Source: Elusimicrobiota bacterium
Lineage (GTDB): Bacteria > Elusimicrobiota > Elusimicrobia > UBA1565 > UBA9628
Reading direction: 5' to 3'
Length of the DNA: 64,000 nt
Assembly (NCBI GenBank): GCA_016234805.1
Contig: JACRNU010000055.1
Coordinates: forward strand, 14,039-78,038
Shown: in pieces, positions 5,958-56,517 of the stretch
Layout: each line of letters begins with the position of its first letter
Position numbering within the stretch: position 1 is the stretch's first letter
Notes under the pieces: generated by a model
What the model saw: the letters and a program-made list of their open reading frames with translations, nothing else
The model's database searches: none
What the model was told of the DNA's origin: nothing
Program-made: the position numbers and the translations under genes

Positions 5958-5969
5958 GACGCCCAGCTC

Positions 5970-7604: not shown

Positions 7605-7605
7605 G

Positions 7606-11072: not shown

Positions 11073-11095
11073 TCTTTCTTTGATAGAATATGCCG

Positions 11096-12254: not shown

Positions 12255-13687
12255 GCGTGGCCGAGTTCTACCACTGGGGCACCCGGGTCACGGAGGTCAT
12301 CCTCGTCTGGTATTTCTTCCTCCTCAACGCCATCTACCTGGGCCTGGCCTTCATCGCCTTCCGGGTCATCTCCAAGCACCTGCTGCGCAACGTCTACGGA
12401 GGCTTCGAGAACATCTCCAAGAGCCCGCTGACCCCGGCCATCACGGTGCTCGTCCCGGCCCACAACGAGGCCGTGGGCATCTGCACCACGGTCAACAACC
12501 TGCTCCACCTCGACTTCATGCGCTTCGAGGTCATCGTCATCAACGACGGGTCCACGGACGGCACCCTCGACGAGCTCAAGAAGGCCTTCCGCCTGACCCC
12601 GATCTCCATCCCGGGCCAGGGCGCGCTCAAGACCGAACAGGTCCGCACGGTCTACCACTCGGCCACGAACCACAACCTCGTGGTCGTCGACAAGAGGAAC
12701 GGGGGCAAGTCCGACGCCCTCAACGCGGGCTTGAACATCGCCCGCTACCCGTACTTCTGCACCATCGACGCGGACGCCATGCTCGAACCGGACGCCCTCC
12801 AGCGGGTCATCCGGCCCGTGGTCGAGTCCCCGGTGCGGGTCATCGCCGTGGGCGGCATCGTGCGCATCGCCAACGGCTGCAGGATCGAGAAGGGCCGCGT
12901 CACCGACGTGGACCTGCCCTGGGCGCCCCTGCCCATCTTCCAGGTCGTGGAGTACTTCCGGGCTTTCCTCTGCGGCAGGACCGGGCTCTCCAGCGCCAAC
13001 GCCCTCATGATCATCTCGGGCGCCTTCGGCCTCTTCGAGAGCTCCCTGGTCATGGAGATCGGCGGCTACAGGGTCGGGACCGTGGGCGAGGACATGGACC
13101 TCGTGACCCGGCTCCACGACCTCATGGTCAAGAAGGGCGAGAGGGACTACCGCATCGAGTTCGTGCCCGACCCCGTGTGCTGGACCGAGGCCCCGACGAC
13201 CATGAGGGTCCTGATGCGCCAGCGGAGGCGTTGGCAGAAGGGACTGCTCGAGGTGCTCGCGGACAACTCCCACATGTGCTTCAACCCGCGGTACGGCTGG
13301 CTCGGCATGTTCGGCTACCCCTTCCTCCTCGTCTTCGAGGGCTGGGGCATCCTCCTCGAGACCCTCGGGTATGCCGTGTTCCTCGCGGGCTGGTGGCTCG
13401 ACGCCATCCAATCGGACTTCATGTTCGCCTTCTTCATCTGCGCCATGCTCACCGGCACGCTGCTCTCCCTGACCGGGATCATGCTCGGCGAGATGACCCC
13501 GCGCGAATACCCCAAGTACGGCCAGTGGCTCCGGCTCATCGCCTACGCCGTGCTCGAGAACTTCGGCTACCGGCAGATGATCTCCTACCTCAGGCTGGCA
13601 GGCACCATGGACTTCCTCCTCGGCAGAGGGGAATGGGGCCGCATGGAACGCGAAGGATTGACCCGCAAGAAAGCCCATGCTGCGTAA
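12251..13687 (+). CDS. Processive GT2 glycosyltransferase (PgaC/IcaA-like)
   Basis: VPAHNE, NDGSTD, NGGKSDALN, DAD, GEDMD, QRRRW; flanking TM helices. Confidence 0.92.
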   Translation: MSVAEFYHWGTRVTEVILVWYFFLLNAIYLGLAFIAFRVISKHLLRNVYGGFENISKSPLTPAITVLVPAHNEAVGICTTVNNLLHLDFMRFEVIVINDGSTDGTLDELKKAFRLTPISIPGQGALKTEQVRTVYHSATNHNLVVVDKRNGGKSDALNAGLNIARYPYFCTIDADAMLEPDALQRVIRPVVESPVRVIAVGGIVRIANGCRIEKGRVTDVDLPWAPLPIFQVVEYFRAFLCGRTGLSSANALMIISGAFGLFESSLVMEIGGYRVGTVGEDMDLVTRLHDLMVKKGERDYRIEFVPDPVCWTEAPTTMRVLMRQRRRWQKGLLEVLADNSHMCFNPRYGWLGMFGYPFLLVFEGWGILLETLGYAVFLAGWWLDAIQSDFMFAFFICAMLTGTLLSLTGIMLGEMTPREYPKYGQWLRLIAYAVLENFGYRQMISYLRLAGTMDFLLGRGEWGRMEREGLTRKKAHAA

Positions 13688-15539: not shown

Positions 15540-15547
15540 CCCAAAGA

Positions 15548-15599
15548 TGGTGTCAGACGTTAAGCCACAGAAACGTTTGAATCTTAACGTCTGACACCA
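15548..15599. repeat. REP-like hairpin between convergent genes (GGTGTCAGAC family)
   Basis: Perfect 17-bp inverted repeat TGGTGTCAGACGTTAAG / CTTAACGTCTGACACCA. Confidence 0.85.
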
Positions 15600-15601
15600 G
15601 T

Positions 15602-17503
15602 TTATTGTTCTTTTTTGGGGAGGAGTTCGAACAGGGCGATCTTGCCCATGCTGCCGTCCCATTCCCCAAGAAGACGGAAGCGATCAGGGAAGCTCTTGAT
15701 GAACCCGCGCTCGACGCTGTCGTAGCCCGGATACCACTTCGGCTCCCACAAGCCCAGGTACTTGACGCGCAGGCTCTCGAGGAGGTTGACCCACTCCTGG
15801 GGCAGTTCGCCGTAATAGCCTTCCGGAAGCAGGCCTGCTTGGTGGCCGATGACATGGACCTCGGCCCGGGGAGGAAGCCCTGCCCAGGGCAGCATGAGCT
15901 CGGAATAGTTGATGGCCACGACATCGCCCTTCTCGAGCCTGGCGTCGAGGTCCGCCCATGCCTCTCCCAGGGAGGTGAATCGCGCCTTGTAGAACTCAAC
16001 GGCGGATATCCCGCCTCGGGGCCGCAGCCAGGTCCAGGCGGACCGGTAGTCCTCTTCCTTCCCGAACCAGCCCACGCAGGCCACGCAGGCGTACACCACG
16101 GCCGCGGACCAGACCAGCCGGACAGCGGCGCCCAGCCGTCTTCGATTATGCCGCAGAGCGAACGCGGCTGAGACGATGAGCAGGCCGGGGAGGAACATGA
16201 TGTACCTCGGCTCGCGGGTGGGCTGGAACAGGAAGAAGGCCGCCAGGGTCATGGGAGCCAGCAGGACGAGCCATATCGCGGCACGGTTGCGCGACCTCCA
16301 GGCTGACCAGCCGGCCAGAGGCAGGACCGCCCATGCCGCGGCGAAGAGCGGGCCGAAGCCGTGCTCTGTCCCGTAGACCACGAGACCCTTGAAGGTCTCC
16401 CGGAACGGGTACCAGATCCAGTGGAGCGGCGCTGCCACGAACCACTTCTCCACTCCCACGAGAAGGTCCGACGGCGCCATGGGTCCATGGAAGACCGTCC
16501 AGCTCCCGACCCTGAAATCGAACGGGAACACCGGGTTGTCGTGGTCCCACCAGTTATGGAGGTAGCTCGAGCCTCCGAGCGCCAGGACGAGCAGGCACAG
16601 GGGAATGAAGGACAAGGCGGCCTTCCAGCGCGTGTCCGGCCTGGCCAGGAAAGTCCACAAGGGCAGGAGCGGGAGCGGCGCCTGGAGGTAGGCCGTGGAC
16701 TTGGAGCCCAGGGTCATGCCGAACCCCAGGGCGAAGGCAACGAGGTATTCGATCCTGCCTGTCCGGTCGAAGAGCACGGCAGCAGCGGCCGTCCCAAGAA
16801 AGCACGCGCCGTAGACCAGGTCCACATAGGGGATCCCGGCCTGGATGAGCGCCAAGGGCACGGCAAGCGAGCCGAGACCGCAAGGCACGGCCCACCGGCT
16901 GCCTGCGAGCCTGCGTCCCAGGACCGCCGCGCTCGCGGCCATGAGGGGCAGGACCAGGACCTGGCCCAGCTTGGAAGTCTCCAGGCGGCCGCCGTCCATG
17001 AGAGACAGCCACGCGGACAGGAGCTCGCCGTTGTGGGCGAGATAGCGGTGGAAGGTGGGCCAGCCCGCCAGAGAGAAGTCCCCCTGCCGGATCCAGCGGA
17101 AGACGATGGGCAGGTGGTAGGAGAGCCCGTCCCAGGAGTCCGGCGGCGTCTTCCAGGCAAGGTAAAGCCTGAAGTAGAGGGCGGCGGCAAGAGCGGCCGC
17201 AGCCGGCCAGAACACCGGAGGGAACACGGCGTTCCTCAATATCCGCCCCGTGGGCACGGGCTCTTCTTTCTGGAAGGAGAGGGCGACCAGCCCCTGAAGG
17301 AGCGCGAGCGCGAAAGTGAAGCCGCCCACAAAGCCTGGGGTGAGCTTCCCGATCGAACCAAAACCCAAAGTGACGAGAACACCCTCGGCGCAGGCCAATA
17401 CGCTCGCCAGGAACGCGGCTTCCAGGAACCTGCGCCTCAGATAGTTGGTCACGAGGATGTGGCAGGACACCAGCAGACACGCGAAGAGCGCCAGGCCCAT
17501 CAT
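15602..17503 (-). CDS. GT-C fold (ArnT/PMT-like) multi-pass membrane glycosyltransferase
   Basis: WDGLSYHLP, YVDL, LGSKST, NPVFPF, REPRY motifs; ATG 17503 overlaps stop of upstream small ORF. Confidence 0.65.
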   Translation of the reverse strand: MMGLALFACLLVSCHILVTNYLRRRFLEAAFLASVLACAEGVLVTLGFGSIGKLTPGFVGGFTFALALLQGLVALSFQKEEPVPTGRILRNAVFPPVFWPAAAALAAALYFRLYLAWKTPPDSWDGLSYHLPIVFRWIRQGDFSLAGWPTFHRYLAHNGELLSAWLSLMDGGRLETSKLGQVLVLPLMAASAAVLGRRLAGSRWAVPCGLGSLAVPLALIQAGIPYVDLVYGACFLGTAAAAVLFDRTGRIEYLVAFALGFGMTLGSKSTAYLQAPLPLLPLWTFLARPDTRWKAALSFIPLCLLVLALGGSSYLHNWWDHDNPVFPFDFRVGSWTVFHGPMAPSDLLVGVEKWFVAAPLHWIWYPFRETFKGLVVYGTEHGFGPLFAAAWAVLPLAGWSAWRSRNRAAIWLVLLAPMTLAAFFLFQPTREPRYIMFLPGLLIVSAAFALRHNRRRLGAAVRLVWSAAVVYACVACVGWFGKEEDYRSAWTWLRPRGGISAVEFYKARFTSLGEAWADLDARLEKGDVVAINYSELMLPWAGLPPRAEVHVIGHQAGLLPEGYYGELPQEWVNLLESLRVKYLGLWEPKWYPGYDSVERGFIKSFPDRFRLLGEWDGSMGKIALFELLPKKEQ

Positions 17504-44222: not shown

Positions 44223-45497
44223 ATGAAAACCATTGGAACGGTTTGCCTGACAATCCTCGGCGCCATGACCCAGGCAGCCTGGGCGGCCGAAACCGTCAAC
44301 TGGCAGGTCACGGTGAGCGCCATGGAAGAGATCTCCACCCAGGCGTGGCAGGAGTACCCTGTGACCGTGGGCCTCAACAGTTCCGGCGGGGTCAAGAACT
44401 ACGCCCCCCCCCAAGGCACCACGCGCATCGACATCACCGTGGCCTTCCCCATCACCGCGTCCTGCACGAACTGCGGGGAGAGCTTCAGCGGTATCCCGCA
44501 CACCTACCCTTATTACGCCGTGTGGTACACCTACCTCGGCGGTGACATGCATAGGGTTCAGGTCTTCGGCGGGAACGTGGGTGGGGCGCTCTTGCGGGAG
44601 TCCGTCTTCTCACGGTACTGCCCCAACGGCTACCGCCAGATGTCCGTGATGTTCGACGCCCTGGTGACCTCCAAGGTCCAAGAACCCAGGGCCGCGAATG
44701 CGGTCGGGACTCTCGTGGGCGGCCAGGGCGAGGTCCTTTCCGCTCCCTGGCAGGCCGCCCCGCAGGCCATCAACGGAGGCACGCTCACCGGATACACCGC
44801 TTCCGTGGCGGGCGACAATCCCAAGGTCGAGATGAGCCTGACGGTCAGCGACAACATCTCCGGGACCGTGACCGCCAAGTTCCCGGCCTGCATCCCCGCT
44901 CCCGAGCTCTGCGACGGGGTGGATAATGACTGCGACGGCGACATCGACGAGGACCAGGGCGTGGCCCAGTGCGGAGCCGGCGCGTGCGCCAACTCGGTGC
45001 CGGCCTGCGTGGACGGCAAGCTCAATGCCTGCGCGCCCCTGCCGGCCTCGTCCGAAGTCTGCGACGGCGTGGACAACAACTGCGACGGCGCGGTGGACGA
45101 GGGGCTCGGGTCCGTATCCTGCGGCTCGGGCTTGTGCGCCAACACGGTGTCCGCCTGCGTCGGCGGATCCTCGCAGTCCTGCTCGCCGCTCCCGGGCTCG
45201 GCCGAAGCCTGCGACGGCATCGACAATGATTGCGACGGAGTGGTGGACAATGGATGTCCGAGAGGCATCCTCAACATCCTTGAACACTTCACCAACAAGG
45301 CGCTGCCGCCCGGCATCCAGAGGCTCATCGACAAGGTGAACTCCCGCGCCAACGCGGGGATCGCGCCCACGAGCGCGCTGGAGAACCGGGTCGACAAGGT
45401 CAACGACCGCCTCGACCAGCAGGCGGAGAAGAAGGCAGAGCAGGAGGCCAAGCAGGCTGCGCAGCAGGCCAAGCAGAACCAGAAGAAGAGCAAGTAG
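44223..45497 (+). CDS. Secreted protein with MopE-like (ExCDGxDNxCDG) metal-binding repeats
   Basis: Three Cys-rich repeats ELCDGVDNDCDG/EVCDGVDNNCDG/EACDGIDNDCDG; GGAGG RBS. Confidence 0.8.
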   Translation: MKTIGTVCLTILGAMTQAAWAAETVNWQVTVSAMEEISTQAWQEYPVTVGLNSSGGVKNYAPPQGTTRIDITVAFPITASCTNCGESFSGIPHTYPYYAVWYTYLGGDMHRVQVFGGNVGGALLRESVFSRYCPNGYRQMSVMFDALVTSKVQEPRAANAVGTLVGGQGEVLSAPWQAAPQAINGGTLTGYTASVAGDNPKVEMSLTVSDNISGTVTAKFPACIPAPELCDGVDNDCDGDIDEDQGVAQCGAGACANSVPACVDGKLNACAPLPASSEVCDGVDNNCDGAVDEGLGSVSCGSGLCANTVSACVGGSSQSCSPLPGSAEACDGIDNDCDGVVDNGCPRGILNILEHFTNKALPPGIQRLIDKVNSRANAGIAPTSALENRVDKVNDRLDQQAEKKAEQEAKQAAQQAKQNQKKSK

Positions 45498-45520
45498 CCG
45501 TGTGACAGGCACCATAGGCA

Positions 45521-45552
45521 CGCGCCGCTCCGAGGGAGCGGCGCGGCGATTT
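45521..45552 (+). terminator. Probable intrinsic terminator
   Basis: CGCGCCGCTCC-GAG-GGAGCGGCGCG hairpin after stop; weak U tract. Confidence 0.55.
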
Positions 45553-45665
45553 CCCGGCCAAGTGGGCCTTTAGACCCATCCAAGTCTGGGCCTTCCGGCC
45601 CTTTTCCGGGCCATAAGTCCTAGTACAATAGTCGCGTGGATCAATCCCGCCGAGGAGGCACCCCG

Positions 45666-46877
45666 ATGTTTCTTGGCCGCTTGCTGCTGCTCGTCGCTGT
45701 CCAGACGCTCTTCGTCGCGCAGGCCCGCGCGGTCTGCCCTTACGGCCCCACGGTGCGCAAGATCGTCTCCTGCAAGGCCTCCGTGTCCACCGCGGACTGC
45801 CGCAAGGTCGCGGAGAAGACGGGCTGCGAGGTCATCCGGGAGCTCGAGCTCATCAATGCCATCGTCATAGACGTGAGCGCCACCCAGGAGAAGTCCGCGG
45901 ACCTCGAACTGGCCGCGGCAGAGGAAGTCAAGATCGTGGAAGCGGACCGCAGGGTCAACTGGCTCAAGGGCCTCGGCGAATTCAAGCTTCCTGATATCAA
46001 GGATATCGTAACGCCCTTCCGGGCCGCGGTCGGGGCCGGGCCCGCGCCCAAGGCCGGGGAGGACCCGGAGCAGCCCTGGGGCATCCAGAGGGTCAACGCC
46101 GCCGGAGCCTGGGCCAAGACCCAGGGGGCGGGGGTGCGGGTCGCGGTCATCGACACCGGCATCGACTACAACCACCCGGACCTCAAGGGCAACGTCTACG
46201 GCGGGGCGAACGTGGTCAATGAAGCCAAGCCCAAGGACTACATGGACGACCAGGGGCACGGCACCCACGTTTCAGGCACCATCGCGGCCCTCAAGGACGG
46301 CAAGGGCGTGGTGGGAGTCGCGCCCAAGGCCAAGCTCTTCGGGGTCAAGGTCCTCGACGCGGAGGGCTCTGGCGACTACTCCACCATCATCGCCGGCATC
46401 CAGTGGGCGGTGAAGAACAAGATGCAGGTCGCGAACATGAGCCTCGGCGCTGAAGAGGGCATGGACGCCTTGCACGAGGCTATCAAGGCAGCGACCTCAG
46501 CCGGGCTGCTCATCGTGGCGGCCGCGGGCAACAACGGAGGAAAGGTCGGCTATCCAGCGGCTTACCCGGAGGTCGTGGCGGTCTCCGCCTCGAATTCGGC
46601 TGACAAGATCACCTCCTTCTCCAGCCGGGGGCCCGAGATCGCCTTCATCGCTCCTGGAGCTAACATCAAATCATCCTTCATGGGAGGAGGCTACGAGAAC
46701 CTGGACGGAACCTCCATGGCCTGCCCCCACGTGGTGGGCTTGGCTGCCCTGGCAGCAGGCCTGGGCCATAAGGGAGAGGCCATCCGTGGGGCCCTGGAGC
46801 GGGCAGCAACCCCGCTTCCTGGCCTGACCGCTACCCAACAGGGCAAGGGCTTCATCAACGCGGCGAAAATAAAATAG
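45666..46877 (+). CDS. Subtilisin (S8) serine peptidase with propeptide
   Basis: VIDTGID, HGTHVSG, AAAGN, GTSMACPH; GAGGAGG RBS. Confidence 0.95.
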   Translation: MFLGRLLLLVAVQTLFVAQARAVCPYGPTVRKIVSCKASVSTADCRKVAEKTGCEVIRELELINAIVIDVSATQEKSADLELAAAEEVKIVEADRRVNWLKGLGEFKLPDIKDIVTPFRAAVGAGPAPKAGEDPEQPWGIQRVNAAGAWAKTQGAGVRVAVIDTGIDYNHPDLKGNVYGGANVVNEAKPKDYMDDQGHGTHVSGTIAALKDGKGVVGVAPKAKLFGVKVLDAEGSGDYSTIIAGIQWAVKNKMQVANMSLGAEEGMDALHEAIKAATSAGLLIVAAAGNNGGKVGYPAAYPEVVAVSASNSADKITSFSSRGPEIAFIAPGANIKSSFMGGGYENLDGTSMACPHVVGLAALAAGLGHKGEAIRGALERAATPLPGLTATQQGKGFINAAKIK

Positions 46878-46957: not shown

Positions 46958-47203
46958 GGACCCAGACCGACACAAGACCAAGTTGTCCACAGACTATCCC
47001 CGTCCATTTCCCGTGGCCTTCCAAATTTCTACACTAATTGGTGCCAGACCTGCCGACCTGGCGTAAACAGGCCATATTAATATTGCTTGGCTTAACCTCG
47101 CCAGATATCATGTTTGTTAACTATTGGTGCCAGACATTGCTAATTGATTTCAATCAATGCACAACTTTCCCCAGGATATGCTATAATCTCATCCACAGAC
47201 CAG

Positions 47204-48190
47204 ATGACTGACACCACCAGCACCTCAAAGCCGTTCGAGAACACGGGTTACTGGGCCGTCATCCTTGGGGGTTCTTCGGGCTTTGGCCTGGCAACAGCCA
47301 AGCGCTTGTCTAGAGCCGGGATGAACATCCTCATCGGCCACAAGGACACGGAAGGCACGGTCGAGACCGTGCTCAAGCCTCACTTTGACGAGATCCGGGC
47401 CCAAGGGGTCAAGCTCGTCACCCACAACACCAACCTTTTCGATGAGGACGGACGGGGTGAGGTGTTCGAAAGCATCGCCCGGAACGCCGGCCCAGGAAAG
47501 GTCCACCTCTTCATGCACTCCATCGCCGCAGGGGCCTGCAAGCTCCTGATCGAGGACAAGGGGCCGGATTTCAAAGGCAAGGCCATGGCCGGGCTTGCGG
47601 ATGCCCTCAAGAAGGAAGGGGTGGCGGTCACCCCTGAAGTCCTCCGGAAGGCCGTGAACGAGGCCTTTCATGGCGGAGGGGCTGATGCCCTGCACACCCT
47701 GGCGGACAGCAGGATCCCCTACCGGGACACATTATTGGAAGAACCCGATCTTCAGCGCACCATCGGGATGATGGGCTACGACTACCTGCTTTGGGGCCGG
47801 GAACTGGCCAAGGAAGGCCTGCTCTCCAGATCCGCCAGGCTCGTGGGCCTCACCTCGGAAGGCAACACCGTGTCGTGGAAAGGCTACGCTGCCGTGTCCG
47901 CTGCCAAGTGCGGGCTCGAAGCCTGCGCCAAGGCCATGGCGGTCGAGCTCGGCCCCCTAGGGGTCCGGTGCTTCATCCTTCAACCCGGCATCACGGACAC
48001 CCCGGCCGGCAATGCCATACCGAATTTCGACTTGATGAAGGCTGAGGCGCGCATCCGCAACCCTTCGCGCCGCCTCACCACCCCGGAGGACGTGGCCGAG
48101 GTCGTGTGCGCCATGTGCCTGCCGGGGTTCGACTGGGTCAACGGCGCCGTCATCCGCGTGGACGGCGGCGAAGCAGTGTCAGGAGGCTGA
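47204..48190 (+). CDS. Enoyl-ACP reductase (FabI/FabL-type SDR) with internal insertion
   Basis: LGGSSGFG, HSIA, YAAVSAAK, RLTTPEDVA, VDGG; TGnTATAAT upstream. Confidence 0.85.
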   Translation: MTDTTSTSKPFENTGYWAVILGGSSGFGLATAKRLSRAGMNILIGHKDTEGTVETVLKPHFDEIRAQGVKLVTHNTNLFDEDGRGEVFESIARNAGPGKVHLFMHSIAAGACKLLIEDKGPDFKGKAMAGLADALKKEGVAVTPEVLRKAVNEAFHGGGADALHTLADSRIPYRDTLLEEPDLQRTIGMMGYDYLLWGRELAKEGLLSRSARLVGLTSEGNTVSWKGYAAVSAAKCGLEACAKAMAVELGPLGVRCFILQPGITDTPAGNAIPNFDLMKAEARIRNPSRRLTTPEDVAEVVCAMCLPGFDWVNGAVIRVDGGEAVSGG

Positions 48191-48196
48191 ACAAGG

Positions 48197-49107
48197 ATGA
48201 AGCTGAACATTCTCGGGATGGGCTGGTATCTGCCGAAGAACGAGATCACCAATGATTTCCTTCATAAGGAAGTCGGCCTCGAAAAGGGGCCGGACTGGGT
48301 GGACTCGCGCCTCGGCATCTACCGCAGGTTCTCCGTCCTGACCAAGGACTACATCCTCAAGACCAAGAACCAGAACCCCGCCCAAGCCATGGCCCACGCC
48401 CGCGCGCACGGGGAGACCCCGGTGACCATGGGCATCAAGGCGGCCAAGGACGCCCTCAAGATGGCCGGCGTCAGCCCGGACAAGGTCGGCATGGTCATGG
48501 CCAACAGCGACACCCCCTTCGACATGGTGCCGGCCACGGCCAACCTCATCGCCAAGGGCCTCGGCGTGCGCAACGGCGCGAACTGCGACGTCAACTGCGC
48601 CTGCTCGAGCTTTGCCAAGCACATGCAGATCCTCTCCGACACCCGCCCCGAACGGGTGCCCGAGTTCGTGCTCTGCGTCCAGACCGCGGCCTACACCGCG
48701 CGCATCGAGTATTCCCCCAACTCCATCGACCCCTACATCTTCGGCGACGGTGCCTGCGCCCAGGTCCTTTCCACCAAGCACCAGGGCAGGCTCACCGTGG
48801 AGCCCATGATTTTCGAGACCAACCCGGACGCGGCGGAGACCATCCTCCTCGATGCCGCCGGCCATGTGAGGCCTTCACCGTGGCCCACCAGGCCAACTAC
48901 GTGATGCAGAACTCCGTGCTCCACCACCTGAACCTGCCCGAGAAAAAGCATCTCCGGAACGTCCATGAGCAGGGCAACATCGCGGCAGCCGGGGCGCCTT
49001 CGGCCATCGCCCAGAACCTCCACCGGTTCAACAAGGGCGACAAGCTCGTTTACGCGGTCCTCGGCGCGGGCCTGGCCTGGGGCGGCGGGTACATGGAGGC
49101 CAACTAG
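48197..49107 (+). pseudogene. fabH: 3-oxoacyl-ACP synthase III split by deletion/frameshift
   Basis: NCACSSF and FGDG in the 48197 frame; HQAN, GN and GAGLAWG in a different frame from ~48871. Confidence 0.8.
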
Positions 49108-49110
49108 GGC

Positions 49111-49833
49111 ATGGACGAGATCGCGGTCGTCACCGGAGCGGGCGGAGGCATCGGCAGCGCGGTCGCGCTCATGATCCACGATAAATCCGAGGGCGCGCTC
49201 AAGCTCGCCCTGTGCGACATCAATAAGAACGCGCTCGCCGAACTCGCGGGCCGCATCCCAGGGTCCTTCCCCGTGGTTTCGGACATCACGACCGAGGCGG
49301 GACGCAAGGCCCTCGTGGACGCGGTCCTGGCCAAGGGCACGCCCTCGGTCCTGGTCAACAACGCGGGCATCGACCGGCCCCACGAGCCCTGCCTCGCCAT
49401 CCTGGAGTCGTCCTACGACACGCTCCTCAACCTCAACCTCAAGGCCCCGGCCTTCCTCATGAGGGCCTTCTGCAAGGAGATGATGGCCGCGGGCGGGGGA
49501 GCCGTGGTCAACATCAGCTCGGTCCTGGCCAAGCACGCCCTGACCGGCTCCGCCCTCTACCGGGTGAGCAAGGCGGGCCTCGAGGCCCTGACGAAGCAGT
49601 TCGCGGCCGAGTTCGGACCCCGGGGCGTGCGGGTCAACGCCGTTGCGCCCGGCTTCATCATGACTCCCATGACCGCCAACATCCCGGATGAGACCAAGGA
49701 GAAGATCCGCTCCATGATCGCGCTCGGCGAGTTCGGCACGCCCGAGGCCGTGGCCGAGGCGGTATGGCACCTGGTCGAGAACCAGTACATCAACGGCGTG
49801 GTATTGCCGGTGGATGGAGGAATGGTCCTGTGA
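49111..49833 (+). CDS. fabG: 3-oxoacyl-ACP reductase
   Basis: TGAGGGIG, NNAGI, YRVSK, VAPGFI. Confidence 0.85.
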   Translation: MDEIAVVTGAGGGIGSAVALMIHDKSEGALKLALCDINKNALAELAGRIPGSFPVVSDITTEAGRKALVDAVLAKGTPSVLVNNAGIDRPHEPCLAILESSYDTLLNLNLKAPAFLMRAFCKEMMAAGGGAVVNISSVLAKHALTGSALYRVSKAGLEALTKQFAAEFGPRGVRVNAVAPGFIMTPMTANIPDETKEKIRSMIALGEFGTPEAVAEAVWHLVENQYINGVVLPVDGGMVL

Positions 49834-50315
49834 GCCTCTCCAATGACGAGATCCTGGCCCTGGTCCCCCAGCAGCGGCCCATGCGGTTCATCGACGACAT
49901 CCTCGAGCTCGACGGGGACCACATCGTGGGCTCCTACACCTGGAAGGAGGAGGACTGCGCCGGCCACTTCCCGGGCAACCCCGTGGTCCCGGGAGTCAAG
50001 CTCATCGAGATGGCGGCCCAGGTGGGCAACGTGGCCTGGGGCATCTACCTCATGTCCCTGGAATCCTCGCCCGAGCAGGTCCGCGACATGGTGGGCTTCT
50101 TCACCCGGATCGAGCAGGGGACCTTCAAGCGGGTGGTCCGGCCAGGGGACAAGGTCCGCGCCGAGGCCCAGTTCGGAGACGAGGGCTACTTCCGGTCCAA
50201 CAAGGTGGCCTCCTGCGTGGAGATCCGCTTCGAAGGCGGGCCCAAGGACGGTGAGCTCGCCTTCGAGGGCTTCACCTGCGGGATGTGGGTCCCGCGCGCG
50301 GAGGTCCGTGATTAG
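49830..50315 (+). CDS. fabZ: 3-hydroxyacyl-ACP dehydratase
   Basis: PQQRPMRFID, GHFPGNPVVPGVKLIEMAAQ. Confidence 0.85.
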   Translation: MSLSNDEILALVPQQRPMRFIDDILELDGDHIVGSYTWKEEDCAGHFPGNPVVPGVKLIEMAAQVGNVAWGIYLMSLESSPEQVRDMVGFFTRIEQGTFKRVVRPGDKVRAEAQFGDEGYFRSNKVASCVEIRFEGGPKDGELAFEGFTCGMWVPRAEVRD

Positions 50316-50332
50316 GCCTGGAGCGCGCGCGG

Positions 50333-50383
50333 AGGTGCCAGGTTCGGGCATCAACATGATGCCCCAGTTCGAACTTGGCACCT
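50333..50383. repeat. REP-like hairpin (GGTGCCAG family)
   Basis: AGGTGCCAGGTTCG / CGAACTTGGCACCT arms with an inner GGGCATC/GATGCCC stem. Confidence 0.7.
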
Positions 50384-50396
50384 GGGCACAGCTATC

Positions 50397-51710
50397 ATGA
50401 TGATGAAACGCGTCGTCGTCACCGGCATGGGCGTCGTGGCCGCCAACGGCGTGGGCCTAGCCGCGTTCCGTTCGGCGCTCAAAGCGGGCCGCAGCGGCAT
50501 CAAGCGGCACGAGCACCTCCAGAAGCTCAATTTCTCCTGCCAGATCGGCGGCATCCCGGACCTCACCGAGGAGGACATCCTCAAGGTCCTGCCCGAGCCC
50601 GAGTCGCGCAAGCTCGGCGAGGCCCAGGTCTACACTGCCCTGGCCGCGGTCGAGTGCGCCCGGAGCGCCGGCATCCACGCCGACCTCTACAACGGGTTCA
50701 AGGATTCGGCCGTGGACTGGAACACCGGCGTGATCATGGGCTGCGGCATCGGCGGCATGGACACCATCTTCGAGGAGATGGGCCCGGCCATGGCTTCGGC
50801 CGAGGAAGCCGAGCCCGGCCGGGGACCTGCTGCCATGGGCACGGATGTCGTGCCCAAGATCATGGGGAGCTCGACGAGCGTCGTGATCGGCCGGTTCCTG
50901 GGCCTGGGCAACCTCACGAGCAGCAACAGCTCGGCCTGCAACACCGGCACCGAAGCCGTCTTCGCCGGCTGGAACCATCTTCAGATGGGCTATGCGGACG
51001 CCATGTACGTGGGCGGGGCCGAGGGCTCCCACTACGGCATCTGGGCAGGGTTCGACGCCATGCGCGACGTGCTCTGCTCCAAGTTCAACGAGACCCCGGA
51101 GCGCGGCTCCCAGCCCATGGGAGCGCTCGCCTGCGGGTTCGTGCCAGGCTCGGGCGCCGCGGTCCTGAGGATCGAGACCCTCGAGGCCGCGCAGAAGCGC
51201 GGGGCCCCCATCCTGGCCGAGCTCCTTGCCGCCTACTGCAACTCAGGCGGCCAGCGCGACGGCGGGTCCATGACCTTCCCCAACCCCGAGGGTGTGACCC
51301 GGTGCATCCGCCGGGTCCTCAAGGACGCCGCAGTCGAGCCCTCGGCCATCAGCCTCATCAACGGACACCTGACCTCCACGGGCGCCGACCCTCAGGAGGT
51401 CTCGAGCTGGATGAGCGCGCTCGAACTTGCGCCGGAGAAGTTCCCCCTCATCCAGTCCACGAAGTCCATGATCGGCCACGGCCTGGGCGCGGCCGGGGCC
51501 CTGGAGTCCGTGGCCGTGGTGGACCAGCTCGGCCAGGGCTACGTCCACCCCTCCATCAACTGCGAGGAGACCCACCCGCGCATCAAGGCAATCGAGCGGA
51601 GCATCCCGCGCTCTTGCATGCAGAAGCGCCTCGACCTGGCCATCAAGGCGTCCTTCGGATTTGGAGACGTGAATGGCTGTCTGCTGTACAAACGCTGGGA
51701 CGGGAGGTAA
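50397..51710 (+). CDS. fabF: Beta-ketoacyl-ACP synthase II-like
   Basis: RVVVTGMG, SSACNTG, INGHLTST, IGHGLGAAG, SFGFG. Confidence 0.88.
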   Translation: MMMKRVVVTGMGVVAANGVGLAAFRSALKAGRSGIKRHEHLQKLNFSCQIGGIPDLTEEDILKVLPEPESRKLGEAQVYTALAAVECARSAGIHADLYNGFKDSAVDWNTGVIMGCGIGGMDTIFEEMGPAMASAEEAEPGRGPAAMGTDVVPKIMGSSTSVVIGRFLGLGNLTSSNSSACNTGTEAVFAGWNHLQMGYADAMYVGGAEGSHYGIWAGFDAMRDVLCSKFNETPERGSQPMGALACGFVPGSGAAVLRIETLEAAQKRGAPILAELLAAYCNSGGQRDGGSMTFPNPEGVTRCIRRVLKDAAVEPSAISLINGHLTSTGADPQEVSSWMSALELAPEKFPLIQSTKSMIGHGLGAAGALESVAVVDQLGQGYVHPSINCEETHPRIKAIERSIPRSCMQKRLDLAIKASFGFGDVNGCLLYKRWDGR

Positions 51711-51719
51711 TTGTAAACA

Positions 51720-52667
51720 ATGGCATTCAAGCGCAAGGAAACGACGGTCGAAGCCGTGGACCTCAGCACGATCACGCCCGAGGACGCGCAGACGCGGATC
51801 ATCGCCGGGGTCAAGAAGTACGCCACCAATGAGGCCAACTGGTCCAAGGCCGACCGCAACACGCCCTACCTGGGCCACATCACCGGGATGGGCATCGAGT
51901 CCGCGAACCTGGCCGACATCACCATGTCCATCGAGCGCCAGTTCCTGACCAAGAAGACCAAGAAGGTCCCGGTCGCCCTAAAGGGCTCTCCTTCGGGTGG
52001 GGGCTCCGAGACCGAGTTCACGCTGGAAGACGGCGACCTCGGCAAGCTCCGCATCCTCGAGGGCCAGGACTCCGTCATGGCCACCCCGGGCCTGACCATC
52101 CAGAAGCTCATGGAGCTCGGCCACCTGCCGACGAACGCCTCCTACCTCGACGGCACGGCTTCCTTCGCCACGATCGTCTCCGTGGGAGCGGGCCACCGCC
52201 TCACGGACGCCCTGCGCAAGACGGCCCTCCGCATGGAGAAGTCCCAGCCCGCGGAGAAGACCGAGGCGCGCGCGAACCTCGAGTCCCTCATCAAGCAGGC
52301 GCGGGACTTCGAGACCCTGCTCGGCGACCCGGCGGCCCTGGCCGCGTCCAAGCAAGGTGACTTCCAGACGGACAAGAACTCGCTGGAAGCCCTGACCCAC
52401 GAGCTCTCCATCGTCAACGAGAAGCTCAAGGGCGTCACCTCGAGCGACGACCCCTCCCGCTCGACGAGCCTGCGCGCGGAAGAGTCGCAGATCCGCACCC
52501 GGATCAGGATGATGCGCCAGAAACTGACGGTCTCGGAAGAGACCGCCCGCGGCGCCGGGGTCCGAAAGTCCGTGGACACGGCGAAGTTCCAGGAGGTCCG
52601 AGCTCTGCTCGCGGAGACCATCAAGCTCGCCGTAGAGGCGCTGGCCCAGGTCCCTGCCGGCTGCTGA
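51720..52667 (+). CDS. Divergent acyl carrier protein-like domain fused to a coiled-coil tail
   Basis: GMGIESANLADITMSIERQF resembles ACP helix II (Ppant Ser); located between fabF and the PPTase; heptad-rich C-terminal half. Confidence 0.55.
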   Translation: MAFKRKETTVEAVDLSTITPEDAQTRIIAGVKKYATNEANWSKADRNTPYLGHITGMGIESANLADITMSIERQFLTKKTKKVPVALKGSPSGGGSETEFTLEDGDLGKLRILEGQDSVMATPGLTIQKLMELGHLPTNASYLDGTASFATIVSVGAGHRLTDALRKTALRMEKSQPAEKTEARANLESLIKQARDFETLLGDPAALAASKQGDFQTDKNSLEALTHELSIVNEKLKGVTSSDDPSRSTSLRAEESQIRTRIRMMRQKLTVSEETARGAGVRKSVDTAKFQEVRALLAETIKLAVEALAQVPAGC

Positions 52668-52690
52668 ACGGACGCTGACCAGGTCCGGTC

Positions 52691-52723
52691 CCCGTGGGGG
52701 AGGGCATCCCCCTCCCCCACGGG
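52691..52723. repeat. Perfect 14-bp-stem intergenic hairpin
   Basis: CCCGTGGGGGAGGG-CATCC-CCCTCCCCCACGGG. Confidence 0.75.
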
Positions 52724-52748
52724 CCGGTTCCCTGCGGCAGCGTCGCCC

Positions 52749-54149
52749 ATGACGCTCACCTCTGCGGACATCCGCAACCTCAGGCTCCAGAGGCTCCTGG
52801 GGGACATCGCCGTCCCCTTCACCCACGTGTTCCTCTCCCTGGCCTCGCGCTATTTCGGGTACCGATTTCGGGACCTCGAAGCCTTCCGCCGCAAGGTCTG
52901 GAAGGCCCTCGACGGGCACGACGGCCCGGTCATATGGGCCGCCAACCACCTGACCCTCTGGGACTCCTTCGTCATCTTCTGGGCGGTCTTCCCCCTCCTC
53001 AGGACCCTGGAGGGCCGGCGCCTTCCCTGGAACACCCCTGAGCACACCAACTACTACAGGAACGGCGGGTGGTTCAAGTGCCGCGTCATCCGGGTCTTCA
53101 TGTACCTCTGCCGCTGCATCCCCTTCCTGCGCGGGGGCGAGGACGAGTTCTCGGTCCAGTGGCGGCAGATCGCCTTTGAGAAGTGCGTCTGGGTCCTCTC
53201 CGAGGGAGGCACTGTCTTCGTCTTCCCAGAAGCCACCCGCGCCCGCAACGGCTGGTTCGAGGCTGACAAGCCCAAGGACTTTCTCGGCAGCCTGTGTGTT
53301 CGCGTTCCGCGTGCCAAGGTCCTTTGCCTCTACCTGAGAGGCGAGGGCCAGGCAGGCACCACCTCCTACCCGGCTTGGGGCGAGACCTTCCGCATGGACG
53401 CCGAGCTCTGGGACCCTGCCACGGGCCCGGCCAGCACGGCCCGGTCCATCGCGGCCGGCCTCTTCACCCGCGTCGGAGCCCTGCAGGAAGCCTGGTTCAG
53501 CGCAAGCACCCTGCTCAAGAACTGCTCCGGCAACGACATCGTGGACCTCAAGGGTCACCTGCTCCGCGAGCACTTCAGCGACGACCTTCTGGACATCGAC
53601 CCGGAGTGGGCAGGCCGCCTGCTCACCTCGAAAGAGCTCGAGTACCTCGGAGCCCGACCCGCGGCCGAGCTCTTTTCGACCTTCTGGCGCTTCCACGCTG
53701 CCAAGGAAGCGGCCTCCAAAGCCCTGGCCCAGGCCGGGGTCAAGGTCCTGCCCGGAGGGTTCTCCACTATCGAGGTGGACCTCTTCCAGAACCGGGCCCG
53801 GCACCTGCCCACCCTGCTGGAGTGCCGCCTGCGCTTCACCGACGACGACGCGGACAAGATCCACTGCGTCGCGGTCCTCCGCGGGGGCCGCATCGGAGAC
53901 GACTCCGAGCCGGGCGACGTGCTCTGGAAGGTCGCCGAGGTCCCGCCGGGCGAGTCCGGCTCAGGGTTCTGCCGCGACCTAGCCCTGGACCTCATCGCCG
54001 AGTCCTCCGACGACATCTCCCCGGCCTCCCTCTCCTTCACCGAGATCGACGACATCCCGCGCGTGATGCGCGCAGGCAAGCCCCAGGACTGGGGCGTGTC
54101 CATCTCGCACGCGGGAAGGTATGTTGCGTGCAGCTTCATGGTGTCATGA
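52749..54149 (+). CDS. PlsC-like acyltransferase fused to 4'-phosphopantetheinyl transferase
   Basis: ANHLTLWDS and FPEATR (LPLAT); GNDIVD, FWRFHAAKEAASKA, SISHAG (PPTase). Confidence 0.85.
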   Translation: MTLTSADIRNLRLQRLLGDIAVPFTHVFLSLASRYFGYRFRDLEAFRRKVWKALDGHDGPVIWAANHLTLWDSFVIFWAVFPLLRTLEGRRLPWNTPEHTNYYRNGGWFKCRVIRVFMYLCRCIPFLRGGEDEFSVQWRQIAFEKCVWVLSEGGTVFVFPEATRARNGWFEADKPKDFLGSLCVRVPRAKVLCLYLRGEGQAGTTSYPAWGETFRMDAELWDPATGPASTARSIAAGLFTRVGALQEAWFSASTLLKNCSGNDIVDLKGHLLREHFSDDLLDIDPEWAGRLLTSKELEYLGARPAAELFSTFWRFHAAKEAASKALAQAGVKVLPGGFSTIEVDLFQNRARHLPTLLECRLRFTDDDADKIHCVAVLRGGRIGDDSEPGDVLWKVAEVPPGESGSGFCRDLALDLIAESSDDISPASLSFTEIDDIPRVMRAGKPQDWGVSISHAGRYVACSFMVS

Positions 54150-55582
54150 CCTGCGTGAGAGGGGAAAAAGGCATCCACAGGATTCCCCTCGCCTTGCCTC
54201 GGTCTTTGGAACCCCGAAGGGAGGACCTGGAGGAAGCCTTGCTGTCCGCCCAGCGCCGACTGAAGGACTTCGCCGACCGGAACGGCTGGGCCGATCTCGT
54301 CAAGGATAGATTCGCCGACCAAGCCGAGATTTTCAATGACAAAGCCGAGTTCGATGCGGCGCTGATCCGGCTGACGGGCGCCGACCCTTCGACCAAGCTG
54401 CCCAAGACCTATTCCGCCGCTCTGGAGAAAGGCGTCTTCTTGTCCGTCTCGCCCAGGCTGTACCAAGAGAACTACCCGCAAGGCTCCGAGGACGGCGCCT
54501 TCGAGAAACTGGTCGCCCATGAGATGGCTCACCGACTGCACATCCGTATTCTGAAAGGAGATGAGGATGCCATGGGGCCGATCTGGTTCTACGAGGGATT
54601 CGCCATCCATGCCGCAGGGCAGTTCGAAACGCTTCCGATCCGGTTGAGCCCCGAGGAGATCCAGGAAGTGGTCGACAGCGCGACAAGAGGCAGCTACGCG
54701 AAATACGGCGCCGCGTTCCGGCATTTCCTGGAGAAAGCTCCCATCCAGGAGCTGGTGAAAAGGGCCGGAGGCAAGGACTTCCCGGACTACCTGAGACGGA
54801 TTGACAGGCCTTTTCTTCTGACCCAGGCCACGAAAGGCGACTGCAAGGGAACCATCCTGCTGGTCCAAGGCAGCGCGCCCTTCAATATCGACGGCCGCAT
54901 CCCGGTCAAGGGCCGCTCCGCGTATCACAACATCGAGTTTTACAGGGATATGGCCGACGCCCTCAACTCCTACGGCTGGGATGTCGTCCGGTATGCCAAG
55001 CCCGGCGTCTACAAGGATCGGATCGATCTTAATGAATACGACAAAACCGACCTTGCGACCATCATGCGCCAGTTGAACGCCATCTGGAACGAGATGCCGT
55101 CCCGGAAGCCCCGCATCATCTTCGCTTGGAGCGAAGGGACTCTGCACGCTTCGCGATTGCCGCTTTCTGAAGCCAGCGCGGTCATTCTCCTGGGAGCGAT
55201 ATCAACGAACATCAGGGATGTGATTCTCGCGCAAGGGGGATCGCCAAAAGAAATAAAGGCCATCAGGAAAATGGGCCGCGAAGAGATGTTGGGGATAGAT
55301 CGCCCTGCCGGAAGGCTTCTCGATGAGCTCGCCATGGCGGACAACTGGCGGTTCTTCGAGAAGCACCCAGATCTTCCCATGCTGATCCTGCATGGGGAAG
55401 AAGACACGGAGGTTCCGGCCTCCCATGCGAAGACATGGAAAACCATGCTGCCCAGGCACCGCATCGACCTTGTCTTGAAGCCGTCCGGCAATCACATGTT
55501 CGGAGTCGCGCAATCGCCGGATATCGCTGCCCTGGCAGGGACAATCCAAGGATGGCTGGCGGAGACCCTTCAGACCAAATGA
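54146..55582 (+). CDS. HExxH gluzincin-like domain + alpha/beta hydrolase fusion
   Basis: AHEMAH..PIWFYEG; FAWSEG, LHGEEDTEV, GNHMF; overlaps both neighbours (ATGA). Confidence 0.65.
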   Translation: MTCVRGEKGIHRIPLALPRSLEPRREDLEEALLSAQRRLKDFADRNGWADLVKDRFADQAEIFNDKAEFDAALIRLTGADPSTKLPKTYSAALEKGVFLSVSPRLYQENYPQGSEDGAFEKLVAHEMAHRLHIRILKGDEDAMGPIWFYEGFAIHAAGQFETLPIRLSPEEIQEVVDSATRGSYAKYGAAFRHFLEKAPIQELVKRAGGKDFPDYLRRIDRPFLLTQATKGDCKGTILLVQGSAPFNIDGRIPVKGRSAYHNIEFYRDMADALNSYGWDVVRYAKPGVYKDRIDLNEYDKTDLATIMRQLNAIWNEMPSRKPRIIFAWSEGTLHASRLPLSEASAVILLGAISTNIRDVILAQGGSPKEIKAIRKMGREEMLGIDRPAGRLLDELAMADNWRFFEKHPDLPMLILHGEEDTEVPASHAKTWKTMLPRHRIDLVLKPSGNHMFGVAQSPDIAALAGTIQGWLAETLQTK

Positions 55583-56517
55583 GATACTGCATCCTCTTCG
55601 CCGGCCAATCCGTGCAGGAGTCCGGCATGTGCCGGGAGCTCTGGAAGCTCCCCGCGGCCAGGGAGATCCTCGACCGCTTGAAGCCCTCCCTCGGCTCCGA
55701 CCTCGAATACGTCACGACCGAGATGCCCGAACCCGAACTGGCCAGGACCTTCAACGCCCAGCGGGCCATCCACGCCCACCACCTGGGCCACTGGTTCGCC
55801 TACAAAGCCGCGCATCCGGGCCTGGTCCTCGACGGGAGCGTGGGCCACTCCATGGGCATCGCGGCCGCGCTCGTGGCTGCCGGGGCCATGAGCGTGGAGG
55901 ACTCAGGCGCCTTCATCCGCGCCCGGGCCCAGGCCTTCTCAGAAGTGTGCGCGGCCTTCAAGGAGCCCATGGGCCTGGCAGCGGTCATGACGGACTTCCT
56001 GGGCGACTACATGGAGAAGATCGAATCCTTCCCTGGCGTGAGCCTGGCCCTGCACAACACCATCGGCCGCGGCACAGCCGGAGGCACCTTGGCCAGCCTC
56101 GAGGCTTTCGCACGGCACAGCCAAGCCGAAGGGTGGCCCATGAAGATCAAGGTGCTCAAGGTCGAGGGCCCCTATCACACCGCGGCTTTCATGGCTGCCG
56201 AGCCGGCCCTGCTCCAGGCCCTGGCCGGCATCAGGCTCGACTCTCCCAAGGTCCCGGTCTTCATGGGGACTTCGGGCAAGTCTGAGACCGACCCGTCGGA
56301 GATCAGCCGTCTGCTCGCTGCCCAGCCCCACACGCGGGAGAAGCACTTCGACGCGGTCTGGGCCGCCTGCGACTCGGGGTGCAGGAACTTCCTCGAGATC
56401 GCGCACAAGCCCCAGCCCGTGACCTGGATCAGCGACCAGCTTCAGGACGAGGAAGGCGGGCTCATGGCAGGCGTGACCACGCTCGCGGTCAAGACCGCGG
56501 ACCTCGCCGCCCACTGA
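55579..56517 (+). CDS. fabD: Malonyl-CoA:ACP transacylase
   Basis: LFAGQSVQ, AQRAI, GHSMG, LKVEGPYHT. Confidence 0.88.
   Translation: MRYCILFAGQSVQESGMCRELWKLPAAREILDRLKPSLGSDLEYVTTEMPEPELARTFNAQRAIHAHHLGHWFAYKAAHPGLVLDGSVGHSMGIAAALVAAGAMSVEDSGAFIRARAQAFSEVCAAFKEPMGLAAVMTDFLGDYMEKIESFPGVSLALHNTIGRGTAGGTLASLEAFARHSQAEGWPMKIKVLKVEGPYHTAAFMAAEPALLQALAGIRLDSPKVPVFMGTSGKSETDPSEISRLLAAQPHTREKHFDAVWAACDSGCRNFLEIAHKPQPVTWISDQLQDEEGGLMAGVTTLAVKTADLAAH

Follow-up and report, generated by a model that had tools for sequence, protein, structure and literature searches.

The 64,000-nucleotide stretch of DNA analysed here (the window) is a segment of contig C110 in a metagenome-assembled genome (MAG) of Elusimicrobiota that comprises 3.42 Mb in 128 contigs and is 92% complete. 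Nine plus-strand genes at positions 47204–56517 are packed nearly end to end. They encode the enzymes of a fatty acid synthase (FAS), an orphan protein of 315 amino acids (aa) that we call ACPcc, a fusion of a PlsC acyltransferase with a phosphopantetheinyl transferase (PPTase), and a hydrolase. This operon is most likely the main type II FAS of one groundwater Elusimicrobiota family, and not a secondary-metabolite cluster. In many relatives it is most likely the sole FAS. We read it this way because the operon holds the only free-standing ketoacyl synthase (KS) and FabD of the genome, because operon and canonical FabF are mutually exclusive in the family, and because the operon KS is the sole KS in near-complete relatives. 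This exclusion is shown by the data, as are the gene content, the catalytic motifs, their conservation and a modelled complex of ACPcc with the PPTase domain. The gene order is ER-FabH-FabG-FabZ-KS-ACPcc-PlsC/PPTase fusion-hydrolase-FabD, where ER is the enoyl reductase and ACP below stands for acyl carrier protein:

47204–48190, plus strand: enoyl-ACP reductase, a short-chain dehydrogenase/reductase (SDR) of FabL/FabI type (adh_short_C2, E 4.9e-31; PF12241, E 2.3e-7)
48197–49107, plus strand: FabH-type KS III, interrupted (N-terminal part 48197–48870; C-terminal part 48868–49107, in another frame)
49111–49833, plus strand: FabG-type 3-oxoacyl reductase (adh_short_C2, E 2.7e-50; Ser-Tyr-Lys)
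49830–50315, plus strand: FabZ-type hotdog dehydratase (NF000582, E 6e-19; catalytic His; the GTG start overlaps the FabG stop)
50397–51710, plus strand: elongating KS of the FabF/FabB superfamily (PF00109 and PF02801; Cys-His-His triad)
51720–52667, plus strand: ACPcc, orphan 315-aa protein (Pfam and NCBIfam silent)
52749–54149, plus strand: 466-aa fusion of a PlsC acyltransferase (residues about 1–245) and an AcpS-type PPTase (about 255–466), from Pfam
54146–55582, plus strand: two-domain hydrolase with an N-terminal HExxH region and a C-terminal alpha/beta hydrolase (sub-threshold Pfam and NCBIfam matches)
55579–56517, plus strand: FabD-type malonyl-CoA:ACP transacylase (PF00698, E 1.9e-24; GHSxG)

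Stop and start codons overlap as GTGA or ATGA at the FabG/FabZ, fusion/hydrolase and hydrolase/FabD junctions. The remaining intergenic gaps are 3–9 nt, with the exceptions of FabZ-KS and ACPcc-fusion (81 nt each). The original prediction of nine co-directional genes with overlapping stops and starts is confirmed, with two caveats. FabH is split, and the label 'ACP-like' for the 315-aa protein is a putative one, based on a motif without a detectable domain.

Discrete genes for KS, malonyl transacylase, ketoreductase, dehydratase and enoyl reductase, all with their catalytic residues, make up a dissociated type II FAS. KS, ER, FabG, FabZ and FabD all score below the curated NCBIfam equivalog cut-offs. 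The best NCBIfam match of ER is FabL (NF005975) with 92.6 bits, below the cut-off of 328, and its best PDB match is FabL 3oic, aligned in two stretches on either side of an inserted segment of about 65 aa. Its translation shows the Y-x6-K motif. FabG reaches 179 bits with TIGR01830 (cut-off 297.75), FabZ 68.4 bits with NF000582 (cut-off 113) and FabD 87.5 bits with TIGR00128 (cut-off 260.9). The KS scores 254.6 bits with the FabF equivalog TIGR03150, under the cut-off of 493.75, and is equally close to FabB and FabF structures in the PDB, at about 180 bits. The FabZ gene is conserved in relatives, and FabH, interrupted in the window, is intact in them. An open reading frame (ORF) at 49843–50400 that overlaps FabZ has no family match and was rejected as a spurious wrong frame.

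Profile searches of the 92% complete genome reveal no second free-standing FabF/FabB-type KS and no second FabD. PF00109 is matched by the window KS, by three domains in a single megasynthase ORF on contig C60 and by one 31-bit match on C54, and PF00698 only by the window FabD and the acyltransferase (AT) domain on C60. PF00550 is matched by a canonical acpP on C121 (58.3 bits) and by one domain in a 612-aa ORF on C9, with no PF00550 carrier inside the operon. The genome thus tallied has two each of FabG, FabZ, FabH, carriers or carrier-like proteins and PPTase kinds, and one each of free-standing KS, FabD and recognisable enoyl reductase. The FabI model NF005717 gives at best 87.8 bits in this genome, to a FabG-like gene, and is a poor test, as none of 14 control genomes passes its cut-off; PF03060 (FabK/PfaD type), itself a weak test, is matched only weakly (40.3 bits at most). 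The locus of acpP has the order plsX-fabG-acpP-rnc-acyl-CoA dehydrogenase (L001, G000:C121:24000-38000, positions 4608–8678). This is a canonical fab operon that lacks fabH, fabD and fabF. The genome also encodes three stand-alone AcpS-type proteins, three further PlsC-family proteins and a lipid A cluster on C74 (lpxC-fabZ-lpxA-lpxI-x-lpxB). LpxA and PlsX need acyl-ACP. Since the lipid A genes are present and LpxA uses acyl-ACP, acyl-AcpP must be made. With no second KS or FabD in the genome and AcpP, PlsX and the lipid A genes kept, the operon KS, FabD and FabH would therefore also serve AcpP.

Two further gene rows lie elsewhere in the genome. The one on C64 is another small fab-like unit, made up of genes for a TetR regulator, an SDR of FabG type, a canonical FabH and an acetyl-CoA hydrolase/transferase (L002, G000:C64:40000-55000, minus strand 6320–10331). 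On C60, a PfaC-like megasynthase of 2,356 aa has the order KS-CLF-AT (CLF, chain length factor) plus three FabA-like dehydratase (DH) stretches and is cut by the contig end (L003, G000:C60:20000-33820, minus strand 6694–13764). An alpha/beta hydrolase, an AMP-binding enzyme and a 3-beta-hydroxysteroid-dehydrogenase-type reductase follow it, as a separate 'secondary lipid' system. No PfaA-type partner with tandem ACPs was found; it may be missing from the assembly. Pfa-type 'secondary lipid' synthases (Shulse and Allen 2011; PMC3098273) occur in Elusimicrobia, and that on C60 belongs to this type. These synthases are multidomain KS-CLF-AT-DH proteins and thus a system distinct from the operon, which is without such fusions.

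Of 301 genomes sampled from the phylum, 22 have ACPcc, and all 22 belong to the window's family, f1. A cross-table was made for all 78 genomes of this family, 69 outside genus g5 and nine within it. All are MAGs of 62–100% completeness, and absence of a gene means 'not found'. ACPcc is present in 66 of the 69 genomes outside g5 and in none of the nine in g5. It is missing outside g5 in G338, G350 and G352, which are 100, 62 and 71% complete. A FabF above the curated cut-off shows the opposite pattern, with 0/69 outside g5 and 8/9 in g5 (638–651 bits; G216 is without it). ACPcc and canonical FabF occur together in none of the 78 genomes. Operon-type KS, as classed by us (218–290 bits, spanning about 1,284–1,293 nt or a contig-cut part of this), is found in 64 of the 69 genomes outside g5, and in 52 of those it is the single match at E ≤ 1e-60. 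One of these 52 is G325, a one-contig genome of 3.8 Mb, where it adjoins ACPcc. In G005, G009 and G212 (94–99% complete), PF00109 is matched by the operon KS and by fragments of 20–23 bits and about 40 residues in ORFs of 386–478 aa, which we take to be thiolase-like. At the order level, canonical FabF occurs in only 2 of 31 genomes.

The same relatives retain an ordinary carrier. One canonical acpP each is present in G005, G009, G012, G013 and G014, and a canonical stand-alone AcpS (66–72 bits) in G005, G009, G012, G013 and G212; among the latter five, the fused PPTase (23–33 bits) was detected in all except G012. The row fabG-acpP-rnc without fabF recurs in G005, G012 and G013. The block ER-FabG-FabZ-KS-ACPcc-PPTase is co-inherited, and g5 is without the whole of it. 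Genus g5 retains only operon-type FabH and FabD, adjacent to each other and 60–65% identical to those of the window. In one example (L026, G007:C12, positions 14448–16404), FabH-FabD is followed by the same aminotransferase as lies downstream of the window operon. In g5, operon-type FabH and FabD coexist with canonical FabF, and so the two evidently function with ordinary AcpP. No acpP lies within about 9 kb of the canonical FabF loci of this genus (L021, L025).

Other KS arrangements were seen around the family. A third KS type, with 307–411 bits on the FabF model, accompanies the operon-type KS in roughly a dozen members of the family (e.g. G001:C46:76368-77525 and G317:C51:32221-33414); most copies lie in open frames of 420–770 aa. 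In the sister families f2 and f3, most genomes are without canonical FabF or operon-type KS, and KS domains occur only in ORFs of 1,500–2,970 aa. These genomes may depend on megasynthases for fatty acids.

The original prediction regarded the operon as a dedicated, specialised pathway beside a housekeeping FAS. The part that concerns its own equipment stands: a carrier-like protein, a PPTase and a PlsC-type acyltransferase all belong to the operon, these co-occur near-invariably, and a complex could be modelled. The part that makes it a side pathway is not supported, given the lack of a second FabF-type KS and FabD and the FabF exclusion over 78 genomes. The refuting conditions named in the original prediction give a mixed answer. 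The KS is not scored as housekeeping FabF, and other fabG, fabZ, fabH, acpP and acpS genes exist in the genome, though a second fabF or fabD does not. The genome thus lacks the complete housekeeping FAS II with which a specialised-lipid biosynthetic gene cluster would coexist, and no characterised cluster matches the operon. It could still be proposed that the pathway is dedicated to a specialised lipid and uses only ACPcc, with bulk fatty acids coming from the Pfa-type megasynthase, from uptake or from genes missing from the MAG. The own carrier-like protein, PPTase and acyltransferase would suit such a pathway, as would the duplicate fabG, fabZ and fabH elsewhere in the genome, the PfaC-like megasynthase in this genome and some relatives, and enzyme scores that are all far below housekeeping cut-offs. 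We consider it improbable, given the perfect exclusion between operon and canonical FabF and the lack of a second FabF-type KS or FabD in this genome. Nor do the near-complete G005, G009 and G212, which are without megasynthases, have a second FabF-type KS. The operon is flanked by housekeeping genes that have no relation to it, and none of them is a gene for tailoring, export or regulation.

The operon is well conserved in relatives. Searching with ACPcc recovered 14 loci in MAGs labelled Elusimicrobia or Elusimicrobiota and 46 metagenome loci, and the order ER-FabH-FabG-FabZ-KS-ACPcc-PPTase(-FabD) is recurrent across these 60. Because the same order recurs in 14 genome and 46 metagenome loci, the arrangement is not by chance. 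The KS ends at most 200 nt upstream of ACPcc in 45 of the 52 loci with at least 400 nt of upstream sequence; the exceptions are L014, L031, L033, L043, L051, L068 and L073. Downstream, a script placed a PPTase homologue within 400 nt of ACPcc in 43 of the 45 loci with at least 400 nt of sequence there. One of its misses, L072, is a split match in which the fusion does follow, which raises the count to 44/45 and leaves L068 as the sole exception. The pairing of ACPcc with the PPTase is obligatory. In L062, L063, L064 and L067, the most divergent loci, whose ACPcc is 42–47% identical, the PPTase stands alone at about 190 aa, with no PlsC part, and FabD follows it directly. The conserved core is therefore ACPcc plus PPTase, with PlsC added in the main clade. 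Tandem duplicates of FabH occur within the operon in L013 (2121–4128), L016 (4694–6687) and L046 (247–2237), and the metagenome loci L043 and L051 have an insertion of about 1.5 kb between KS and ACPcc (between 6462 and 8001).

The PlsC-PPTase fusion belongs to both families by profile and by motif. PF01553 gives 33.3 bits (cut-off 23) and PF01648 gives 27.3 bits (cut-off 25). Against the PDB, the PPTase domain matches AcpS 3qmn with E 7e-4, and 1f80 and 1f7l are also among the matches. In all 11 aligned fusions, the PlsC motifs H67-x4-D72 and P160-E161-A162-x-R164 are invariant, and so are D263, K319, E320, K324 and the C-terminal S-x-S-H of the PPTase. D263, K319, E320 and K324 we take, by analogy with the AcpS literature, to have catalytic, Mg-binding and CoA-binding roles. 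The PPTase domain of about 210 aa is strongly acidic, with an isoelectric point (pI) of 4.9 and a net charge of -11.7. There are 158 homologues of the fusion, and all source names given are Elusimicrobia.

ACPcc has no Pfam or NCBIfam match, and a six-frame PF00550 search of the genome does not find it. Its family comprises 251 proteins at E ≤ 1e-3, all of about 300 aa and without a precomputed Pfam domain; 29 ACPcc representatives were found among 1.84 billion. Homologues that carry a source name are called 'hypothetical', except for two JGI entries called muconolactone delta-isomerase, and nearly all are labelled Elusimicrobia, with one Cyanobacteria. A divergent member, P0128 (43% identical), is from a MAG labelled Planctomycetota. 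Another homologue (L068, 427–1296; 42% identical) is accompanied neither by a KS match within the 426 nt before it nor by a PPTase homologue within the 2 kb after it. The family may extend past Elusimicrobiota and past this operon.

Ser61 of ACPcc, in the motif G-M-G-I-E-S, is invariant in 33/33 and 10/10 sequences, down to 23% identity. In the full-length AlphaFold2 model (predicted local distance difference test, pLDDT, 84; predicted template modelling score, pTM, 0.81), Ser61 starts helix 62–74, as the conserved serine does at helix 2 of ACP. The N-lobe consists of helix 20–31, a long loop, the Ser61-capped helix, a β-hairpin (75–109) and helices 116–119, 123–132 and 140–144, and the C-terminal part is a long helical bundle (149–309). 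The β-hairpin is missing in four divergent members (P0124, P0128, P0130 and P0140). Set beside the known ACP topology, the modelled N-lobe would, in our reading, have the element order of an ACP once this variable hairpin is removed. The N-lobe has a pI of 5.7 and the bundle a pI of 9.1, so that ACPcc is not acidic like AcpP. The invariant Ser61, the PPTase gene that follows ACPcc in 44/45 loci and stands alone in four divergent ones, the modelled complex and the complementary charges described below suggest a new kind of carrier, and ACPcc is probably an acyl carrier.

A complex of the PPTase domain (residues 245–466) with full-length ACPcc was modelled in three runs, together with three controls. 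The interface score ipSAE is 0.74 (0.70–0.80 among the runs), and the best of the three controls gives 0.00. Among solved complexes, 58 of 80 reached the mark set for this score, and among mismatched pairs 2 of 110; the counts apply only roughly here, as own alignments were used. The runs have at least 67% of contacts in common, the partners have pLDDT of at least 80, and the interface comprises 135–155 contacts. Residues 57–69 of ACPcc, including Ser61, lie on residues 316–324 of the PPTase, its K-E-A motif. The acidic stretch 424–444 of the PPTase lies on the basic ACPcc helices 157–193, and the two charges are complementary (pI 4.9 for the PPTase domain, 9.1 for the bundle). The model supports binding of ACPcc to the PPTase without demonstrating it.

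These observations suggest the following cycle. FabH would initiate, FabD would load malonyl groups, and KS, FabG, FabZ and the FabL-like ER would elongate; the block ER-FabG-FabZ-KS-ACPcc-PPTase would amount to a full elongation cycle with its own carrier. The PPTase domain would attach phosphopantetheine to Ser61 of ACPcc, since a separate AcpS would presumably not recognise so divergent a substrate. The basic helical bundle of ACPcc may then keep it docked on the acidic PPTase domain while the operon enzymes elongate the chain on the tethered carrier, and the PlsC domain would pass the finished chain to a lysophospholipid-type acceptor. We infer the modification of Ser61, the carrier used and the acceptor of PlsC, and also that ACPcc supplements the canonical carrier and does not replace it, giving two carrier/PPTase pairs. 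The whole picture, in which the operon is the main FAS II of the family and serves AcpP, and a docked, PPTase-activated ACPcc additionally hands chains over via PlsC, is one we favour, though by our estimate it is only slightly more probable than its being wrong in some part. A bolder version would make ACPcc a new structural class of ACP and the first carrier outside PF00550 in primary FAS, docked by its helical bundle on its own PPTase-acyltransferase in a module that, with its own KS, FabG, FabZ and ER, displaced FabF-based elongation family-wide. Such a system would be a natural half-way form from dissociated type II to integrated type I synthases. We put this forward tentatively, as a serious possibility that falls somewhat short of even.

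Several points weigh against this picture. ACPcc has no significant similarity to phosphopantetheine-binding domains in Pfam, NCBIfam, the PDB or hhalign. Its family profile finds no ACP among PDB sequences, with only weak coiled-coil matches (best E 0.047). When the N-lobe is aligned by hhalign with the AcpP of the genomes themselves, Ser61 falls opposite the AcpP serine, in register, at a probability of 0.9%. Residues 54–60, just N-terminal of Ser61, have pLDDT below 50 in the full model. The N-lobe modelled alone has pLDDT 40, is unusable and was excluded from fold searches. Foldseek and VIA-align with the full model return only generic coiled-coil or helical-bundle rows over residues 148–315; these searches are filled by the C-terminal bundle and do not inform on the N-lobe, and the ESM Atlas gave no usable match with residues 1–149. 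AcpS–ACP complexes have already been solved, and the complex score may partly reflect resemblance to these rather than binding here. The genome retains canonical AcpP and AcpS, and a second carrier is not strictly required. The cut C60 megasynthase provides a Pfa-type fatty acid route in this 92% complete genome, all genomes of the comparison are MAGs, and FabH is broken in this assembly.

Some of these points suggest instead that the operon is the main FAS on AcpP alone. ACPcc would then be a structural or regulatory partner of PlsC-PPTase, such as a scaffold or a membrane tether, and the PPTase would act either as a docking module or as an alternative AcpP synthase. Every genome checked retains AcpP and AcpS, ACPcc lacks significant phosphopantetheine-binding similarity, and its C-terminal half is a generic helical bundle. 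The large modelled interface, mostly away from the Ser61 helix, also suits a stable partner. Against a non-carrier role stand the invariance of Ser61 and its surrounding motif down to 23% identity, PPTase catalytic residues that are invariant despite a separate AcpS, a PPTase that stays beside ACPcc even without PlsC, and the modelled position of Ser61 at the K-E-A motif. We rate this alternative as unlikely, though worth keeping in view, and retain ACPcc as a probable carrier.

The interruption of FabH may be a feature of this assembly. Alignment with the three closest relatives (L007, L009 and L010) shows 94 nt missing at 48868, which shifts the frame; the intact FabH of L007 matches FabH models with E 3.3e-47. 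Contigs from four public runs were aligned to the region. Two of them (X2 record 11 and X3 record 16), from strains 95–99% identical, have about 93 extra letters exactly at 48868. In two runs of one study, contigs end at 48864 and continue with unlike sequence. No contig of the four runs bridges the deletion junction; parts of 48300–49400 are without contig cover in these runs, and such gaps carry no evidential weight. No read contig supports the deletion, which may be specific to the strain or an artefact of assembly. C64 carries a second, canonical FabH.

The hydrolase is a second peculiarity of this genome. Its start is uncertain, and the source annotation has 447 aa. None of the 60 related loci has a homologue, and the local G+C is lower, at 0.614. 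The complete two-domain form is rare. Most of the 31 hydrolase homologues span the C-terminal half only; among the 30 listed besides the window protein, one covers 86% and the rest about half or less. Judged from sequence, the hydrolase appears to be an accessory gene inserted into the operon in this genome only. The fusion-FabD junction holds different insertions in other relatives, of 2–6 kb in several. The frameshifting deletion of 94 nt and the hydrolase, with its lower G+C and its absence from 60 relatives, could be taken as signs of an operon that is decaying and non-functional in this genome. We regard decay as very improbable. The deletion junction is unbridged in four runs and the missing segment is present in two related-strain contigs, so that an artefact is possible; all other genes are intact with their catalytic motifs, the second FabH is available on C64, and the hydrolase is translationally coupled at both ends.

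No description of the operon, of ACPcc or of the PlsC-PPTase fusion was found in the literature, searched at the level of titles and abstract openings. The canonical type II FAS has the order plsX-fabH-fabD-fabG-acpP-fabF, plus fabZ, fabI or fabL, acpS and plsC. The operon resembles it in enzyme roles, catalytic motifs and discrete proteins, and in a carrier-position gene that adjoins the KS. It differs in that its enzymes are far below the equivalog cut-offs, the carrier-position gene encodes a 315-aa orphan that is not PF00550, and the PPTase is within the operon, fused to PlsC, acidic and of about 210 aa. Furthermore, canonical fabF and fabD are missing from the genome, with acpP and acpS kept elsewhere. 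In comparison with AcpS/ACP complexes, the PPTase has the PF01648 match and the Asp, Lys-Glu and Lys at the expected spacing, and the Ser-capped helix is modelled at the K-E-A motif. AcpS is basic, whereas the operon PPTase is strongly acidic, about 90 aa longer and fused to an acyltransferase. It is also modelled with a second large interface, to a helical bundle that ordinary ACPs do not have.

Partial parallels exist in other lineages. The rhizobial AcpXL cluster, which serves the very-long-chain fatty acid of lipid A, resembles the operon in that a dedicated carrier is grouped with FabZ- and FabF-type enzymes of its own and with an acyltransferase that receives the product. However, AcpXL is an ordinary small ACP beside a full housekeeping FAS, whereas the operon has a putative carrier of orphan fold and no second FabF or FabD accompanies it. 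Fungal type I FAS has an integrated PPTase and myxobacterial polyunsaturated fatty acid (PUFA) synthases have an acylglycerophosphate acyltransferase (AGPAT) domain; both are megasynthases with PF00550 carriers. In these, carrier activation or lysophospholipid transfer is joined to the synthase, as in the operon, but the operon has a two-domain protein beside dissociated enzymes.

Few parts of bacterial metabolism are as conserved as ACP and the FabF/FabD core, which are also antibiotic targets. The range of known FAS designs would be widened by a lineage that has given up canonical FabF and FabD for a divergent set, above all if this set includes a carrier-like protein whose fold is unrecognised and whose own PPTase is fused to a membrane acyltransferase. 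If the proposed picture is true, it would explain why standard annotation of these genomes gives 'no FAS II' and would offer a testable case of substrate channelling from synthesis straight to phospholipid. The present analysis adds the family-wide exclusion table, the retained AcpP/AcpS pair, the FabH-FabD remnant in g5, the PPTase variants that stand alone, the modelled complex and the complementary charges of its partners.

Two further elements accompany the genes of the operon:

47158–47187, plus strand: promoter-like site with 10/12 consensus matches and TG preceding the -10 hexamer
52691–52723, plus strand: G+C-rich 14-bp hairpin without a T-run, directly 3' of the ACPcc stop

The promoter-like site lies 17 nt 5' of the first ATG. 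The region gave two sites, compared with 1.0 ± 1.0 in shuffles, and the site is a hint that is not significant alone. The hairpin has a folding energy of -59.2 kcal/mol (z -5.2), which none of 200 shuffles equals. Three relatives with a spacer after ACPcc were tested (L007, L010 and L020), and all have hairpins of differing sequence between ACPcc and the fusion (z -3.6, -2.1 and -3.4). The element may be an intra-operon RNA structure, and, as a guess, it is compatible with expression of ACPcc above that of the downstream enzyme. The genes that flank the operon have functions unrelated to it: a MopE-like protein and a subtilase upstream, and rubrerythrin, MnmA and an aminotransferase downstream. 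The upstream pair occupies 44223–46877 of the window, directly next to the operon; one protein has three MopE-type metal-binding motifs and the other is a subtilase S8, and the pair is kept beside the operon only in the closest relatives (L007–L010).

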